DNA of 42,276 nt, taken from a virus. Lineage: Duplodnaviria > Caudoviricetes. Both the position numbers and the translations under genes were made by a program. This document shows positions 4,584-42,276 of this stretch, one piece after another. A model generated the notes under the pieces. That model was not told the DNA's origin, did no database searches, and saw nothing but the letters and a program-made list of their open reading frames with translations. Each line of letters begins with the position of its first letter. Positions within the stretch are counted from its first letter, which is position 1. The stretch is from positions 1-42,276 of the IMG/VR virus record IMGVR_UViG_3300023173_000034; one strand, 5' to 3'.

Positions 4584-4609
4584 CCTAACCAGCAATCAAT
4601 CATATCGTA

Positions 4610-4762
4610 TTACTTCATGGAGCGCATAGCCATAGCCTCCATCATAGCCTCAGCAGCCTCCTTCTTCATCTGCGCCATCTTCTTGTGACGAAGAGCAGAC
4701 TGAATACCCGTCTCTCCGGGATTAATAGGACTGGAGTCTTGAATCATCTTTACCGTTTTCAT
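4610..4762 (-). CDS. 50-aa Met/Ala/Lys-rich helical protein
   Basis: Hand-translated MKTVKMIQDSSPINPGETGIQSALRHKKMAQMKKEAAEAMMEAMAMRSMK; ATGA overlap upstream, terminator downstream. Confidence 0.7.
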   Translation of the reverse strand: MKTVKMIQDSSPINPGETGIQSALRHKKMAQMKKEAAEAMMEAMAMRSMK

Positions 4763-5907: not shown

Positions 5908-5955
5908 TGGGGCGCATGGTGGTCATGAGGGGTTCGTTTCCCCTCCGCCCCACTA
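5908..5955 (+). ncRNA. minimal tRNA-like element (acceptor + T arm, no anticodon arm)
   Basis: TGGGGCG/CGCCCCA stem, CATG-GTGGT-CATG mini-hairpin, GAGGGG-TTCGTTT-CCCCTC T arm. Confidence 0.65.
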
Positions 5956-5969
5956 AAAAACCAAGAACC

Positions 5970-6182
5970 ATGAAATACATTCCTTCCACGGATGACCAAT
6001 GGATAAAGTTGGTCACCACGAGCCGAAAGTCCTTCGGCAGAGCCTCCACGAGAGGCGCGAACTACCACGCCAAAGAGCGTGGTTTGGTGGTTAAGAAAAA
6101 CCGCATTTCGGATGCTATCCGAGAGGCAATAACCGCCGACTATGAGAACACCCGTTTAGTATATGTGTGTCACGCTAAATAA
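5970..6182 (+). CDS. 70-aa basic early protein
   Basis: Start re-assigned to MKYIPSTDDQW after the A-rich leader AAAAAACCAAGAACC. Confidence 0.7.
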   Translation: MKYIPSTDDQWIKLVTTSRKSFGRASTRGANYHAKERGLVVKKNRISDAIREAITADYENTRLVYVCHAK

Positions 6183-6190
6183 TAGAAACC

Positions 6191-6319
6191 ATGACTATTG
6201 AAGCATTAATTCGTGAAGAGTTGGAACATGACTACTACGCCATGGAAACCAACCCAAGGGTCGACAAAGGCATCCTCCGCTTAATGGAGTGCGTCATTGA
6301 AGACATTCAGGTTAACTGA
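6191..6319 (+). CDS. 42-aa acidic early protein
   Basis: MTIEALIREELEHDYYAMETNPRVDKGILRLMECVIEDIQVN; its TGA stop lies in the ribozyme core. Confidence 0.65.
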   Translation: MTIEALIREELEHDYYAMETNPRVDKGILRLMECVIEDIQVN

Positions 6320-6359
6320 CGAGGGTTCAGTACCCGAAACGCCGTGAGGCGTCTTAACC
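6310..6359 (+). ncRNA. type I hammerhead ribozyme 1
   Basis: GGTTAA | CTGACGA | GGGT-tcagt-ACCC | GAAA | CGCC-gtga-GGCG | TC^ | TTAACC; all core nucleotides present; predicted cut after C6353. Confidence 0.92.
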
Positions 6360-6374
6360 AAAAACCTTAATCTA

Positions 6375-7013
6375 ATGATTAATGACTTGAAAGAAATTCG
6401 CTTGGTACGAAACCTCCGAGCCGAATACAATCAGCGAGTGCTAAAGCAGTACCGCACCGAGAATTCTCTCATCACCACTCAAGAGACCCTCCAAGGGGAT
6501 GTTTTCCTCTCGCACGAACAACGAGTTGGTGAGCGCAGAACGAGCACTCATTCTTACGGCTTTGAGGCGGACAACACTCGCAAGATGCACCTCCGCAGAA
6601 CCAAAAACGCCGAGTTGATAGAGTTTAAGTTGGTGTGTGATATCATCACCATTGACTACAACTTTAGTGAAGAGCCTCGTTTCGTTACTACGGAAATGTC
6701 CGAAGAGACGGCTCAACTCGCACCTCGTATGAAGGTCATTTACGGCACGAAGGAGGCGAAAGCCCTCCGAGATATGGCTCGTATGCAATACACCCTCAAA
6801 GACCTCTACAAGGGCAAAGAAACCCAAGGAATTGATGCCCTTGGTGCAATCAAGCCGGGCATCATCATTGACTGCCTCTCGGAATTGGTTGAACGAGCAG
6901 ATGCTGTCTGCGAGTGGGGCACGATATGGGATGCTAAAGATGTTGCATACAAACTTGAGGAAAAGGTTGACTTCCAATTCAAGACGCCGACCTTGAATTT
7001 CAACGCCAAATAA
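6375..7013 (+). CDS. hypothetical early protein
   Basis: 212-aa ORF with an A-rich start region, between the two ribozymes. Confidence 0.8.
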   Translation: MINDLKEIRLVRNLRAEYNQRVLKQYRTENSLITTQETLQGDVFLSHEQRVGERRTSTHSYGFEADNTRKMHLRRTKNAELIEFKLVCDIITIDYNFSEEPRFVTTEMSEETAQLAPRMKVIYGTKEAKALRDMARMQYTLKDLYKGKETQGIDALGAIKPGIIIDCLSELVERADAVCEWGTIWDAKDVAYKLEEKVDFQFKTPTLNFNAK

Positions 7014-7018
7014 GCAAA

Positions 7019-7071
7019 GGTTAACTGACGAGTGCTTTAGTAGCCGAAACCGCCTCCGGGCGGTCTTAACC
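7019..7071 (+). ncRNA. type I hammerhead ribozyme 2
   Basis: GGTTAA | CTGACGA | G(T)GCT-ttagt-AGCC | GAAA | CCGCC-tccg-GGCGG | TC^ | TTAACC; predicted cut after C7065. Confidence 0.9.
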
Positions 7072-7086
7072 AAAAACTCTAATATC

Positions 7087-8025
7087 ATGACAAAGACCGA
7101 CATCTTTGAAAAAGTAAAGCAGACCCTCATTGAGGGCATTGAAAAGGACGGCTTGAATTGGTTCAAGCCATGGAAGGATTCACGAGGCGGTGGTTTGGAC
7201 GATTGGCGTCCTATCAACCGCAAGACGGGTCAACCCTACAAGGGCATGAACATTTGGTTCTTGAGTTCAGCGATGCGTGACATGGGCTATGAGCACAACG
7301 AGTGGCTCACCTATAAAAACGCACAAGAGTTGGGCGGTAGTGTCCGCAAGGGCGAGTCCTCTACCGAGGTGTTCTTTTGGAACATTGGGTATTGGAATCC
7401 AACTACCAAAAAAGCCTACAAAAGCATGGCTGATGCCCTCGCCAAGGGTGAGAGCAAGGAGGACATCAAAGAATTCTTCTCGCTGAAGGTTTGGAATGTG
7501 TTCAACATTGCTCAATGCGATGACATTGAGCCACGCAACCCAAGCCAACCCATTGAGCCCGAGGAGGAGAATATCTTCAGCCCTATCGAGGAGGCGGAGC
7601 GCATCATTGCCGAGTGGGACACAAAGCCTCGCATACAACACGGAGGCAACTCGGCTCACTATAGCCCGAGCATGGACTATGTGCAGATGCCCGAACCAAA
7701 AAACTTCGTGGACGGGGACTCTTATTATAAGACGCTCTTCCATGAGTTGGTGCATAGCACGGGACATGAGACGCGCCTCAAGCGCAAAGGCATCGTGGAG
7801 TTTGATAAATTCGGCTCCGACCGCTATGCGATGGAGGAGTTGGTCGCAGAGAGCGGTTCTATGATGTTGACGGGTCTTGCGGGACTCAACCCGAAGGATT
7901 CCGATGACAACTCGGTTGCCTATGTCAAGAATTGGTCGAAGCGACTCAAGCAAGAGCCAAGCAAGGCGATTGTTGGAGCGCTGACTCAATCAGCCAAGGC
8001 TGTTGAGTTAATCATGGGCAAGTAA
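7087..8025 (+). CDS. ardC: ArdC-family ssDNA-binding anti-restriction protein (DUF1738 + zincin-like domain)
   Basis: WFKPW, PIN..TG.PYKGMN, WLTYK.A..LGGSVRKGE, VFNIAQC, AHYSPSMDY, LFHELVHSTGH, YAMEELVAE. Confidence 0.92.
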   Translation: MTKTDIFEKVKQTLIEGIEKDGLNWFKPWKDSRGGGLDDWRPINRKTGQPYKGMNIWFLSSAMRDMGYEHNEWLTYKNAQELGGSVRKGESSTEVFFWNIGYWNPTTKKAYKSMADALAKGESKEDIKEFFSLKVWNVFNIAQCDDIEPRNPSQPIEPEEENIFSPIEEAERIIAEWDTKPRIQHGGNSAHYSPSMDYVQMPEPKNFVDGDSYYKTLFHELVHSTGHETRLKRKGIVEFDKFGSDRYAMEELVAESGSMMLTGLAGLNPKDSDDNSVAYVKNWSKRLKQEPSKAIVGALTQSAKAVELIMGK

Positions 8026-8033
8026 GCCCGAAA

Positions 8034-8077
8034 GGATGGATGGTCGCAGAGGGGGTTCGACTCCCCCTCCATTCCCA
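8034..8077 (+). ncRNA. second minimal tRNA-like element
   Basis: GGATG/CATTC stem plus GAGGGGG-TTCGACT-CCCCCTC T arm, TGGTC linker, ending in CCA. Confidence 0.6.
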
Positions 8078-8128
8078 AACTTAATAACCAAACTCACGAG
8101 TGCGAGAGGATAACACGGCACAACTACG

Positions 8129-8350
8129 ATGATGACTAAAAACCTCATCTCTACGGCTAAATGGGGAGGTATGTTCCTCGCCTACAACGCCCTCTTCTTC
8201 TTGGTGGGATACTTGTTTCTCGCCTTGTTCAACGGACTCGATATGTCCACTTGGTGTAATGAGGTAGTGAATCTACTGCATGTAGTTGCGCCTTTGTTAG
8301 GGTTCGCTGTTTTCATGGCGGATATGATTGACCAACCCAATAATAAATAA
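8129..8350 (+). CDS. small two-TM membrane protein
   Basis: 73 aa with two hydrophobic segments. Confidence 0.75.
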   Translation: MMTKNLISTAKWGGMFLAYNALFFLVGYLFLALFNGLDMSTWCNEVVNLLHVVAPLLGFAVFMADMIDQPNNK

Positions 8351-8354
8351 GGCC

Positions 8355-8540
8355 ATGAAAGAAGATTTGTTAATGCAGATTTCCTCAATCCTCAGCCACA
8401 CTCACGCTCATCGGCTACTGATGAAGTTGGGCGCAAAGGTGGGTCTCAATGATGATAGCCAAGAGGAGTTTGTCAATCGGCTTGAAGCGTTTGCCGAAGA
8501 AACAATGCTTGAACTGCTCGATGAGCAAGAAGAAGATTAA
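8355..8540 (+). CDS. acidic hypothetical protein
   Basis: Start MKEDLLMQ; acidic C-terminus. Confidence 0.7.
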   Translation: MKEDLLMQISSILSHTHAHRLLMKLGAKVGLNDDSQEEFVNRLEAFAEETMLELLDEQEED

Positions 8541-8559
8541 TCAAATAAAATTAAATGCT

Positions 8560-9339
8560 ATGGAAAACTACAAGAAAGTCGAATGGAGCGACCTCGATGA
8601 GGCGCAGAAGAACATCGCCGATGTTGCGTTCAACAAGGTCGATGCGAAGTACCAAGCCCACCTCGAACGGGCTACTGAACTACGCAATATATTAATAGAG
8701 GCGGGGTTTGACAAGGATGATGTCCGTCACCCTAAATACACCAATGAAGTGTCCGAACGGGAGGAAATCATTGAGTTGGACGGCGAGAAGGTGAAGGTCT
8801 CCAAGTGGATGCATGTCTACTGCGGTGAGGTCATGATTCGTATGCCCAAGGCCATGCACGACGGACTCGGTAACTATTATATGGAGAACCTATGGACAAA
8901 TGTCAAGTTCGATGTGTCCTACCCTCGGTGGATGGCTGAACCCATCTATGATAAGAAGAAACTTGAGTGCGGTGCGCTCTCCAATCGGGCTATCAAGCCA
9001 AGCACTCTGCTTGAGAAATACAAAGAGCATTGCGAGGGTGTTGAGCATCGTATTAATAGAGAGAACGACTACCGAGTTAAGGCCAAGCGCCACCTCTCTA
9101 TATATAAGGAGAAGTACCCCGATGCTGATGTGTCGCTGAAGCGCACCGAGCGTTGGGTACAAAGCAGTCGCTCAACCCACGGGAATTGGGAGGTGAAGAT
9201 TGTGTTCCCGAACGACAACTACGCCTACATCCGAGTCAATCGCTACAACCACAACGATGATGAGATTGTATCGTTCTCGTGGAATGCGTGGGACACGGCT
9301 GACACGGAAGGCAAATTAGATATTCTATCTGCACAATAG
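8560..9339 (+). CDS. hypothetical protein
   Basis: Start re-assigned to MENYKK after an A-rich leader; 259 aa. Confidence 0.8.
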   Translation: MENYKKVEWSDLDEAQKNIADVAFNKVDAKYQAHLERATELRNILIEAGFDKDDVRHPKYTNEVSEREEIIELDGEKVKVSKWMHVYCGEVMIRMPKAMHDGLGNYYMENLWTNVKFDVSYPRWMAEPIYDKKKLECGALSNRAIKPSTLLEKYKEHCEGVEHRINRENDYRVKAKRHLSIYKEKYPDADVSLKRTERWVQSSRSTHGNWEVKIVFPNDNYAYIRVNRYNHNDDEIVSFSWNAWDTADTEGKLDILSAQ

Positions 9340-9358
9340 GTTTTTGGTTAGATAAGTG

Positions 9359-9385
9359 GGGGAGGTGTGCAGACCTCCCCTTTTT
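9359..9385 (+). terminator. intrinsic terminator
   Basis: GGGGAGGT-gtgcag-ACCTCCCC-TTTTT. Confidence 0.8.
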
Positions 9386-9400
9386 AAATCAAGTAGCATC

Positions 9401-9634
9401 ATGAGTACCATTATAGTAAACAATGTCGAGATGCCCGAGGCGCATGTCGTATTAATCTTCGCCAAGGGGGCGCTGAAGATATTGTCTATGGGCATGACCA
9501 TACGCAATGTATCCCTCACCAAGATTAAAAAGAAGTTAGCCTCGGAGGGTATAGTATTAAAGGGGAGAACGCATGTCGCATGTCTCGCCGAGGTGGAGGA
9601 GTTGTTGTCCTCATACGACAAAAAAAGTTCCTGA
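9401..9634 (+). CDS. hypothetical protein
   Basis: Start MSTIIVNNVEM, just after the terminator. Confidence 0.65.
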   Translation: MSTIIVNNVEMPEAHVVLIFAKGALKILSMGMTIRNVSLTKIKKKLASEGIVLKGRTHVACLAEVEELLSSYDKKSS

Positions 9635-9649
9635 CCAAATTTTTTATTC

Positions 9650-9670
9650 GAAACTTTCAAAAGTCATTTG
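9650..9670 (+). promoter_or_regulatory. candidate early promoter GAAACTTTCAAAAGTCATTTG
   Basis: 16/21 match to 5369-5389; 4 nt before ATG 9675. Confidence 0.45.
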
Positions 9671-9674
9671 TGAT

Positions 9675-9983
9675 ATGAAACACGCAGAAGATATCAAGAA
9701 GATGCATGTCCGCCTCTCGGATGGTGGGCTCATCGAACTGCTCTATGCGGATGAGCAAAGGCTCACCCCCATTGCAACCTTTGAGGTTGACAAAGACAAT
9801 CCATTGGAGGATGATTGGTTTGAGTTCATCTATAAGAATGAACCATACGACCTAAACATATGGTCGACCTTCACCCAAGAAGAGGGAGAGCACATGGGTG
9901 CATCTATCTATGAGGTAATCTTGGATGGAGACACCTATGATACGGATACGGCAGAGTGGGTAACAATTGGAATTTTTTCTTAA
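9675..9983 (+). CDS. acidic hypothetical protein
   Basis: Start MKHAEDIKK; 102 aa. Confidence 0.7.
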   Translation: MKHAEDIKKMHVRLSDGGLIELLYADEQRLTPIATFEVDKDNPLEDDWFEFIYKNEPYDLNIWSTFTQEEGEHMGASIYEVILDGDTYDTDTAEWVTIGIFS

Positions 9984-13317: not shown

Positions 13318-13896
13318 ATGTCAAATTCCACTTTCAAAACCTTATCCGAGGTAAGTATCAAGGGTAAGACCGAACGCAAGGGTAATCTTGATTACCTCTC
13401 TTGGGCAACAGCATGGTCTATGCTCAAGCACCACTATCCCAATGCTCAACGCATTGTATATGAAGACCAAGCCACCGGCTTGAACTTCTTTACCGATGGC
13501 CGTAGTGCATATGTCAAGGTGGGTATTGTCGTTGATGAGTTAGAGCACATCGACTACTTGCCCATTATGGACTACCGCAACAACGCCATTCCCATTGACA
13601 AGGTAACATCCTTCGATGTGAATAAAACCATTCAGCGGTCAACGGCTAAGGCTATTGCGCTCCATGGTCTCGGCCTATCCTTGTGGATGGGTGAGGACAT
13701 CGCCGATGTGGCTCCCGTAGTGCAGAGCGCACCCGAGCAACTACCACTAAAGGTTGGCGATGCCAATTGGGAGAAAGTCTCTAAATATATAGAGGCTAAT
13801 AAGGGGCTTGGCTCCGATGCCATCATCAAGAACCTTGAGGTTAAGTATAAGATTACTGCCCAAGTGAAGACTGCCATCAATAAGGCTTGCGCGTGA
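13318..13896 (+). CDS. Sak/DUF1071-type single-strand annealing recombinase
   Basis: LDYLSWATAW, LPIMDYRN..I, VNKTIQRSTAKAIALHGLGLSLW.GED. Confidence 0.88.
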   Translation: MSNSTFKTLSEVSIKGKTERKGNLDYLSWATAWSMLKHHYPNAQRIVYEDQATGLNFFTDGRSAYVKVGIVVDELEHIDYLPIMDYRNNAIPIDKVTSFDVNKTIQRSTAKAIALHGLGLSLWMGEDIADVAPVVQSAPEQLPLKVGDANWEKVSKYIEANKGLGSDAIIKNLEVKYKITAQVKTAINKACA

Positions 13897-14967: not shown

Positions 14968-17397
14968 ATGAGCGAGAGTTTAGTAACCATTTTTAGGAAC
15001 ATCAAGGAGACCGAGCAGCCCTTCTATAGAGATGTGGACTTTATCCTTAATAGAATCAAAGAGGGCGCATCCAAAGAACTCGTAAAGAGAATCCGCTTGG
15101 AGAAAGAGAAGAGCGTCATCAATGAACTGAAGCAACAACTGCCTGCCGTCTGCTTTAGTGGCACATTCAACAAGAGGCAAGACAGCGCTATCCAAGAGCA
15201 CAGCGGATTCCTCTGCCTTGACTTTGACGGCTACAAAAAACAAAAGGAATTACTCGAGGCCAAGGAGCGCTTGGCCAAGGACAAGTATGTATACTCGGTG
15301 TTCATTAGCCCGTCCGGCAAGGGACTCAAGGCTCTCGTGCGCATCCCGGCGGAGGTAGACAACCACAAGAACGACTTCAATGCCCTTGAGAATTATTTCT
15401 CTGATGAGCACTTCGACAAGACAAGCAAGAACATTAGTCGTGTGTGCTACGAATCCTACGACCCACTCATCTATATCAATCACAACTCAAGCGTATGGAC
15501 AAGCCTTGAAGACCAACGCTACAATGAGATTGATAAAAAGAAAGACCGACCCACCATTCCAATCACGGATGAGAACAAGATAGTTGACATCCTAATCCGT
15601 TGGTGGGAGAAGAAATATCCCATGGTGGAGGGGCAGCGCAATCACAATGTATATATCCTTGCCGCCGCATTCAATGACTTTGGCGTGAGCAAGTCTCTCG
15701 CTACCTATGTGCTGTCTCACTATCAAACCTCTGACTTTGGGGAGGGTGAGATTAAGAGAACGATTGACTCAGCGTATTCAGCCACCGAGAAGTTCGGTAC
15801 CCGATACTATGAGGACGAGGATAGGGTAACCCAAATCAAGAACAAGTTGAGAATGGGTGTGCCAAAAAAAGAAATCCGTCATCAACTTGAAGAGTCCAAT
15901 GTTGATGGCGATACTATTGACTTGGTTATCTCTCGCATCGAAGAGGAGCAGGCCGGTCAAAAATTTTGGACAAAGAGCGACAAGGGTGTGGTTAAGATTG
16001 TGCCTATTCAGTTCAAGATGTTCCTCGAGGACAACGGTTTTTATAAATACAATCCGGAGGGCAGTAAGAACTATGTGTTCGTAAGGGTAACCAATAACCT
16101 CATCGACCACACGAGCGAGAACGAAATTAAAGACTTTGTTCTTGACTATCTGCTTGACCTTCAGGATGCATTGGTGTACAATTACTTCGCTGACTTCACC
16201 CGATACTTCAAGGAAGATTTCCTTACGCTATTGGCGTCTATCGATGTGTACTTCATCGAGGACACCAAGGATGCGGCCTACCTATATTATAAGAACTGCG
16301 CCGTAAAGATTACGCACGACCGGGTGGAGACTATCGACTACCTTGACCTCGGTGGATATGTGTGGAAGGACCACGTAATTGACCGGGTCTTTGAACCCGT
16401 CGATGAACCGACTACTGATTTTGAGAAGTTCATCTGCAACATCTGCAACAACGACACCAACCGGATGAAGAGCATGGAGTCTACCATTGGGTTCCTGCTT
16501 CACGCCTACAAGGATTTGTCGTTCTGCCCCGCCGTCATCTTAAACGATGAGGTCATCAGCGATAACCCTGAGGGTGGTACGGGTAAGGGCTTGCTCATGA
16601 ATGGCATATCACAATTAAAGAAGTTGGTAGTCATCGACGGCAAGTCGTTCACCTTCGAGCGCTCGTTCGCATATCAGTTGGTATCGGCAGACACGCAGAT
16701 ACTATGTTTTGATGACGTTAGAAAGCACTTTGACTTTGAAAGGCTGTTCTCCGTGGTGACGGAGGGATTAACGCTTGAGAAGAAGAATAAGGACGCCATT
16801 AAGATTCCGTTCAGCAAGTCCCCCAAGATTACTATCACTACCAACTACGCCATCAAGGGCGCAGGCAACTCGTTTGCCCGGCGCAAGTGGGAGTTGGAGT
16901 TGCATCAGTATTATAACAAGCACTACACCCCGCTCGATGAGTTCGGTAAGTTGTTGTTCGGCGATTGGGACGATGATGAGTGGTTGCAGTTCGACAACTA
17001 CATGATTAACTGCCTTCGTGCTTACCTACGGACGGGATTGGTGCAGAGTTCGTTTGTTAACCTGAAGATTCGGCAGTTGTCAGCAGAGACATCACACGAG
17101 TTTATTGAGTGGTGCGGTCTCATCGACGGGAACATAGCATCGGAGGTGATGCTTGCTTTGATTGATGGGCGCAAGGTTTACAAGCATGAGTTGTACATGG
17201 ACTTTATCCAAGAGAACCCGGACTTCGCACCCAAGGCTAAGATGACTATCTCCCGAACGAGGTTCAATAAGTGGCTCACATCTTACTGCGTATTTAAATC
17301 AGAGGTTACGCCCGAAGAGGGGCGCGACTCGCAGGGCAGGTGGATGCGCATGAAGAGCAAGCATGAGTTAGAGAAGAATGGAAAATTTGAATTCTAA
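14968..17397 (+). CDS. primase-helicase (BT4734/VirE-N primase + PriCT + P-loop helicase)
   Basis: KQQLPAVCFSG, LCLDFD, FISPSGKGLK, SRVCYESYDP; EGQRNHNVY; GGTGKG Walker A, LCFDD Walker B, ITTNY. Confidence 0.9.
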   Translation: MSESLVTIFRNIKETEQPFYRDVDFILNRIKEGASKELVKRIRLEKEKSVINELKQQLPAVCFSGTFNKRQDSAIQEHSGFLCLDFDGYKKQKELLEAKERLAKDKYVYSVFISPSGKGLKALVRIPAEVDNHKNDFNALENYFSDEHFDKTSKNISRVCYESYDPLIYINHNSSVWTSLEDQRYNEIDKKKDRPTIPITDENKIVDILIRWWEKKYPMVEGQRNHNVYILAAAFNDFGVSKSLATYVLSHYQTSDFGEGEIKRTIDSAYSATEKFGTRYYEDEDRVTQIKNKLRMGVPKKEIRHQLEESNVDGDTIDLVISRIEEEQAGQKFWTKSDKGVVKIVPIQFKMFLEDNGFYKYNPEGSKNYVFVRVTNNLIDHTSENEIKDFVLDYLLDLQDALVYNYFADFTRYFKEDFLTLLASIDVYFIEDTKDAAYLYYKNCAVKITHDRVETIDYLDLGGYVWKDHVIDRVFEPVDEPTTDFEKFICNICNNDTNRMKSMESTIGFLLHAYKDLSFCPAVILNDEVISDNPEGGTGKGLLMNGISQLKKLVVIDGKSFTFERSFAYQLVSADTQILCFDDVRKHFDFERLFSVVTEGLTLEKKNKDAIKIPFSKSPKITITTNYAIKGAGNSFARRKWELELHQYYNKHYTPLDEFGKLLFGDWDDDEWLQFDNYMINCLRAYLRTGLVQSSFVNLKIRQLSAETSHEFIEWCGLIDGNIASEVMLALIDGRKVYKHELYMDFIQENPDFAPKAKMTISRTRFNKWLTSYCVFKSEVTPEEGRDSQGRWMRMKSKHELEKNGKFEF

Positions 17398-42208: not shown

Positions 42209-42234
42209 TCTCCAACACTAAAACACAAAACAAC

Positions 42235-42276
42235 TTACTCTAGGTTTCTATCCAATAGCTTGATAGTCTCAATACC
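42235..42276 (-). CDS. C-terminal end of an upstream gene (partial)
   Basis: ...GIETIKLLDRNLE-TAA, followed by the terminator. Confidence 0.5.
   Translation of the reverse strand, partial: GIETIKLLDRNLE

Follow-up and report, generated by a model that had tools for sequence, protein, structure and literature searches.

A tract before a terminator-like hairpin in the early unit of a tailed phage is complementary to predicted ribozyme-released leaders and may act as an anti-leader

The early gene unit of a tailed phage carries, just before a terminator-like hairpin, a short tract perfectly complementary to a leader predicted to be released by a hammerhead ribozyme upstream in the same unit. 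The chance that this tract is an anti-leader, keeping down translation of ardC and the other first genes of the early unit, is put at about even. Such a function is probable in view of the complementarity, the specificity for leaders and the recurrence in a few phages. This reading stands ahead of three others, which in falling order of probability are a generic terminator-side motif, chance, and ribozyme inhibition or a relic.

The window, i.e. the whole stretch of DNA that was analysed, is a virus record of 42,276 bases from a phage that encodes virion proteins, Sak, primase, helicase and GroEL; most of the sequencing runs that contain it are of salt marsh origin. Its host is likely to belong to the Bacteroidota, since TAnnTTTG boxes (a promoter consensus taken from the consulted part of PMC9723704) precede late genes and the A-rich leaders have no Shine-Dalgarno sequences. 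No exact box on the plus strand was found for the early unit itself in the promoter scan. The unit starts with a tRNA-like hairpin, genes 5970 and 6191, hammerhead 1, gene 6375, hammerhead 2 and ardC, and continues with a second tRNA-like hairpin, genes 8129, 8355 and 8560, the tract, the five-T hairpin and gene 9401. No cultured phage matches this early region. The features are as follows, with predicted pairing energies to the tract.

5908–5969, plus strand: tRNA-like acceptor/T-arm hairpin and leader of gene 5970–6182; third predicted target, −15.6 kcal/mol
6310–6359, plus strand: type I hammerhead fold 1, predicted cut 6353/6354; overlaps the stop codon of the small ORF starting at 6191
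6354–6374, plus strand: predicted released leader of gene 6375–7013; best predicted target, −19.3 kcal/mol
7019–7071, plus strand: type I hammerhead fold 2, predicted cut 7065/7066
7066–7086, plus strand: predicted released leader of ardC (7087–8025); second predicted target, −17.4 kcal/mol
8034–8145, plus strand: tRNA-like hairpin (8034–8076), leader and first codons of gene 8129–8350; fourth predicted target (8133–8145), −15.4 kcal/mol
8560–9339, plus strand: ORF of 259 aa, of no known family; its stop codon overlaps the tract
9338–9351, plus strand: candidate anti-leader tract, with 13 perfect pairs to 6355–6367 and a G-U pair at 9351; starts inside the stop codon
9358–9385, plus strand: GC-rich hairpin and 5-T run, terminator-like; ORF 9401–9634 follows

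Both hammerhead folds, as read from the sequence, have the cores CTGACGA/GAAA/TC and a stem I of GGTTAA:TTAACC. They show the type I features (a CUGANGA, GAAA and UH core, three stems and an open stem I), and both are putative type I hammerheads with predicted self-cleavage. Neither fold was scored by the Rfam models. The family is estimated at about 370 IMG/VR stretches, and 144 distinct copies were fetched; among the printed copies nearly all lie a short distance before an ATG, and stems II and III differ in sequence but, by eye, remain paired; variants of stem I are also paired. The hairpin at 5908–5969 was not called a tRNA by ARAGORN. Acceptor/T-arm hairpins of this type, at 5908–5952, at 8034–8076 and at about 9008–9056 of another phage locus (L300), are placed before early genes much as hammerheads are, and might be cut sites for RNase P/Z.

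Several further properties of these leaders can be pointed out. The leader of gene 8129 has a small hairpin with a possible pseudoknot (8090–8122); the same 33 nt are present in RNA-run contigs in a different context, and similar leader folds come after hammerheads in L003, L045 and L117. At 6310–6319 of the window, and in L059 and L038, the stop codon of the upstream gene is inside hammerhead stem I or the core, and a terminating ribosome could thus gate cleavage. The cultured Flavobacterium phage elemoA (MT497074.1; L709, 7997–8056) has a type I hammerhead fold preceding an early gene, beneath a CDS annotated on the opposite strand, and offers a tractable system for this ribozyme class. A related phage (MW202828.1; L710, 14476–19908) has a repeated palindrome between early genes in place of hammerheads.

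The first-pass annotation had described AGGTTTTTGGTTA at 9338–9350 as the exact reverse complement of 6355–6367, and this was found to be so; 6355–6367 is the only minus-strand match of the 13-mer when up to two mismatches are allowed. Its second proposed match, of 11 nt to the ardC leader, is likewise perfect (11/11 over 7067–7077), and over 7067–7079 this leader has 2 mismatches to the 13-mer of the tract. The tract had been termed a 3′ UTR sequence, but it opens with AG, and this dinucleotide belongs to the TAG stop codon (9337–9339) of ORF 8560–9339. The duplex does cover the stem I 3′ strand and the upstream initiation region, including the adenines at −12/−13, as had been proposed, but the AUG lies outside it: at gene 6375 the pairing spans about −21 to −8, and at ardC −21 to −6. 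What had been taken as the operon terminator is a hairpin at 9358–9381 that may be a partial terminator, because it has a run of only five Ts and a 77-codon ORF begins at 9401.

Folding predictions show the tract unpaired (p 0.8–0.9) when the RNA begins at the stop codon and partly folded if upstream coding sequence is attached; a single-stranded seed directly 5′ of an intrinsic terminator is predicted. No match to an internal promoter for a separate small RNA was found at 8900–9345. Two contigs from RNA runs are found here, X15, which stops at 9380, and X19, which covers 9362–9750; contig ends are not RNA ends, and DNA carry-over is possible. The tract was also considered as a promoter −33 element, which is ruled out by the absence of a −7 box at the proper distance. 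A −33 reading does suit similar tracts in L050, L300 and the elemoA phage. Separately, the 8 nt of the terminator loop (9366–9373) are perfectly complementary to the final codons of ORF 8560 (9328–9335); the resulting helix (−11.2 kcal/mol) forms before the hairpin is complete and could couple read-through into gene 9401 to translation.

When 34 start regions of the phage were ranked by pairing to the tract, the four targets listed above came first, and the next value was −11.4 kcal/mol. Each of the four genes lies behind a hammerhead or a tRNA-like hairpin (two each). Shuffled controls, which the first-pass annotation had proposed, reached the best value in only 3 of 500 cases over the 34 start regions, in a test that is post hoc and with four targets that share one A-rich motif and so are not independent. 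With the seven early start regions, the best value was reached in 4 of 2000 shuffles and the sum of the top two in none of 2000. Among the 27,253 21-mers of the genome, the tract also pairs best with the two ribozyme leaders, by a margin of 0.3 kcal/mol over the next; when all 25-nt windows were ranked as partners, the 6375 leader was first and the ardC leader seventh. Leaders in two Bacteroidota genomes rarely pair so well: 0/344 and 1/416 do so at −17.4 or better, 3/344 and 6/416 reach −15, and none reaches −19.3.

A different explanation is chance, i.e. that a G/U-rich spacer fits A/C-rich leaders and was picked post hoc from many windows. In its favour, inverted perfect matches of at least 13 nt number 22 pairs in the window, inside the range of 8–24 given by 20 Markov simulations. 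A bare 13-nt inverted match is thus not rare, and what is above chance is its position and rank. The question had been raised of whether G/T-rich tracts match initiation regions equally well at random, and the answer is mixed. It is no for the tract, but yes for the phage's two other G/U-rich pre-terminator spacers, at 4587–4613 and 42212–42238 (both minus strand), for which shuffles did as well in 48 and 243 of 500 cases, respectively; the first of these fits the Sak leader at 13318 (−18.8), yet the 48 shuffles equal it. The shuffle and ranking results for the tract itself speak against chance, which is considered improbable.

How the tract might act can be outlined. The ribozymes would cut the RNA while it is being transcribed, and the resulting 5′ ends, beginning UUAACCAAAAA, would be unpaired. 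The tract would be made last, a ribosome terminating on the overlapping stop codon would mask it and the hairpin would cap the 3′ end. The hairpin-capped 3′ end of the finished transcript would then pair with the ribozyme-released single-stranded 5′ ends, and translation would be damped. In a free 3′ piece the seed should be open, and the adenines at −12/−13 should be covered on binding; in Flavobacterium, adenines at these positions and low structure promote initiation (PMC7797042, citing Baez 2019, as far as the source was available). For binding to the cut leaders, a gain of −14 to −17 kcal/mol is predicted, vs −6 for stem I. We infer that cleavage occurs in vivo, that a 3′ piece persists for longer than the messages do, that the tract is exposed when the stop codon is free of ribosomes, and that translation is repressed.

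The first-pass annotation had left the choice between a small RNA and a long-range contact. Pairing of either type is favoured by a specificity that exceeds that of shuffles and host-like leaders, but a purely cis contact fails for the 13/13 target, because the second hammerhead separates this target from the tract. As hammerhead 2 cuts between the 6354 leader and the tract, this leader would have to pair in trans. The ardC message could close on itself in cis unless 8034–8076 is cut. In the minimum-energy folds of both 7066–9386 and 6354–9386 the 5′ end is closed onto 9337–9351. The further proposal of a negative feedback that shuts off the earliest genes is favoured by the pairing to early leaders and by looser matched tracts elsewhere, but "damps" is better supported than "shuts off". 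With one tract per two to four targets, damping would need a longer-lived 3′ piece.

The complementarity could have another basis at the ribozymes themselves. The tract might invade stem I of uncut precursors and slow cleavage; the predicted gain on uncut ribozymes is −13 to −16 kcal/mol and the cut site is reached. Hammerhead cleavage is generally fast relative to transcription of 2.3–3 kb, however, and is expected to be done long before RNA polymerase has travelled that distance. Or else the tract is a relic of an inverted hairpin-leader cassette. The minus strand of the element does read as a hairpin followed by TAACCAAAAA, and at 6 of 59 viral sites real leaders are laid out in this way, but there is no ATG-led ORF behind the element on that strand. 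Stem I invasion or a relic is held to be the least probable of the readings.

Matched tracts were also looked for in other phages with hammerheads. A downstream stop codon and terminator were present at 30 of 70 hammerhead loci, giving 37 elements; omitting the window, and L045, which is itself a hammerhead, leaves 35 spacers (loci L081–L130, most of them with flanks of 300 nt, contributed leaders only). Of these 35 IMG/VR phage spacers, each between a stop codon and a terminator downstream of a hammerhead, 5 contain GGTTA, against an assumed 3% (binomial p 0.004; 0.018 by lineages), which is a further argument against chance. In four loci, L061, L033, L038 and L059, the stop-GGTTA-terminator spacers are located 2.9–4.4 kb downstream of the first ribozyme and follow genes that have no relation to 8560, and 0, 0, 0 and 2 of 100 shuffles, respectively, were as good.

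L061 is an unrelated phage whose spacer pairs at 22 positions with its own, different leader, and L061 was not chosen for the matched-tract feature, which also argues against chance. With the shared core held fixed, none of 107 foreign leader sets matches the tract of the window, or that of L061, as well as its own leaders do; foreign sets match as well in 20/107 cases for L033, 13/105 for L038, 33/105 for L059 and 107/107 for L007, the first three being weak matches and L007 no match. The combined p, with the window and L059 left out, is 0.03. As L038 and L059 are a single lineage, the other hammerhead phages provide one strong independent case (L061) and two weak lineages.

Other searches gave less. 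A tract before a terminator with at least 10 perfect pairs was found in 0 of 69 other hammerhead loci, by a criterion less sensitive than the duplex-energy test, and five long hammerhead phage records had no clear same-strand spacer matching ribozyme leaders. A broad own-operon permutation test, which counts in favour of chance, gave p<=0.05 in 9 of 135 cases, about chance level. It used 135 protein-family representatives of 179 spacers, with two reverse-leader families dropped and start sites called crudely, and missed the strong G020 case, whose target was in another fetched piece.

In G020, a terminator-side tail (L703, about 6270–6310, vs L702, about 17222–17252) is complementary over about 30 pairs to a start region located 9 kb upstream (−43 kcal/mol, 0/30 shuffles) and is the strongest candidate anti-leader found. 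The G/U-rich tails of G017 and G018 suit the leader of their own gene by eye, and 15 and 3 of 30 shuffles, respectively, were as good as their best partners. G019 has 12 perfect pairs across the AUG of a ribozyme-led gene, from the opposite strand (4/30 shuffles). In L300, the 10-nt G/U loop of a post-stop hairpin at about 8962–8987 complements early codons of a gene near 7422; this hairpin can also be read as a promoter.

The first-pass annotation had also looked to compensatory changes in related phages. The closest relative, G021, is 89% complete and syntenic (ArdC 64%, helicase 80%), but it has neither gene 8560 nor a tract before a terminator; this absence is a point against an anti-leader and for chance. 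In G021 the terminator overlaps the ardC stop codon, and a hammerhead precedes ardC with a different leader. ORF 8560 has no Pfam or PHROG match and only two homologues, at 92% and 81% identity, and close relatives of ORF 8560 or ORF 6375 were not found in IMG/VR. A metagenome scan gave one contig (L134) in which the protein is 100% identical and the UTR, by eye, is identical also.

The alternative that carries most weight, although it is considered somewhat unlikely, is that the tract is a recurrent Bacteroidota terminator-proximal UUUUGGUUA motif that affects the message in which it lies, by providing a site for an RRM-type protein or nuclease. Its mirroring of the leaders would then be incidental, since strong leaders in Bacteroidota have TAACC and runs of A; TAACC is indeed enriched in the leaders of one Flavobacteriaceae genome (28/416 vs 13.4 expected). 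TTTTGGTTA precedes a GGGG hairpin in 113 viral stretches, vs 13 for a control of the same composition. There are 59 distinct viral sites with the hairpin, 31 of them after a stop codon, 6 reversed leaders and 22 unclassified. Many sites are behind virion genes, as judged from translations, and no same-strand hammerhead was found in the fetched flanks of the 59. In GTDB, 33 of the first 80 motif matches are Bacteroidota by title, and 18 of the 33 are directly after a stop codon; pairing to the own leader was absent from the sets of bacterial matches and virion genes examined. It is also in line with such a protein site that RbpB prefers a G/U/A motif (10.1101/2021.04.27.441718, in the part consulted).

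Against a general motif, TTGGTT occurs in 0/54, 3/62 and 0/42 unselected spacers, the non-Bacteroidota control being one genome, and genome-wide G/U-rich spacers in hosts are ruled out by this rarity. In addition, the match runs past the core into phage-specific letters in both the window and L061, and just 4 of the 34 start regions of the phage pair. In five motif records the complementary 9-mer was found elsewhere just once or twice. The TTTTGGTTA sites may be of a separate kind, recognised by a protein or nuclease, or may be the same type of anti-leader with distant targets. As a separate observation, two protein families of 475–483 aa, probably major capsids (L138, L142, L154, L173, L552, L558, L581 and L593), retain TTTTGGTTA between stop codon and terminator while the hairpin loops vary.

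An anti-leader would have counterparts among known systems, which are described here from the available parts of the sources. Pairing between 5′ and 3′ UTRs has been shown by experiment for icaR mRNA of Staphylococcus aureus (PMC3868564), where, as predicted here, a 3′-UTR motif is complementary to the initiation region and initiation is blocked. However, icaR pairs with a Shine-Dalgarno sequence within one monocistronic mRNA, whereas the phage leaders are A-rich, have no Shine-Dalgarno sequence and come from predicted ribozyme cuts; the targets are 2.3–3 kb from the tract, the best one on a separate RNA piece. One-molecule pairing of the icaR type is possible for ardC, according to the fold, if 8034–8076 is uncut, but not for the 6354 leader after the hammerhead 2 cut. 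In Bacteroides, the FopS RNAs consist of a seed plus terminator and block initiation, including the 3′-UTR-derived FopS-14 (PMC11697453), and the small RNA GibS has also been described (PMC7366714); a FopS copy is reported in a phage (PMC11697453; PMC7366714). The likeness is in the single-stranded seed followed by a terminator hairpin, the pairing beside start codons and the Bacteroidota background. The phage seed differs, being 13–14 nt long, starting on a stop codon and having no promoter match, and the tract region gave no match to FopS/GibS in Rfam at gathering score or E<=10.

Clustered hammerheads have been described in phage and prophage transcripts, including those flanking ardA and the HHphage of HF1/HF2 (PMC3088659). 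As here, they are found just before early genes and beside an anti-restriction gene and are thought to cut polycistrons; the accessible part of that report describes no antisense partner for the released leaders and leaves the purpose of hammerheads just before early genes unresolved. In Bacillus subtilis, distal anti-RBS 12-mers repress at over 500 nt; such complements lower both translation and mRNA level and are normally depleted (PMC12697547). This resembles the phage tract in that a 12-nt complement is far downstream, but those are engineered reporters with Shine-Dalgarno-type sites, at hundreds of nucleotides and in cis only. In the largely open-access literature, supplements aside, we found no description of an antisense partner for phage leaders released by ribozymes. 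Thus, the pairing logic is known from icaR and FopS-type systems, and ribozyme-released phage leaders as targets are probably new.

A wider proposal, which is tentative and in our judgement rather doubtful, is a protein-free timer of early genes that unrelated Bacteroidota phages have built repeatedly, in which single-gene messages share a single-stranded 5′ tag and a 3′ anti-tag, on the last-made, hairpin-capped piece of the transcript, silences them in trans. If this is true, ribozymes and tRNA mimics would cut the first transcript, and each phage would carry an anti-tag that fits its own tag. An RNA partner directed at ribozyme-made ends would give those ends a regulatory role, and it would show a down-switching of translation in a phylum whose ribosomes ignore Shine-Dalgarno sequences.
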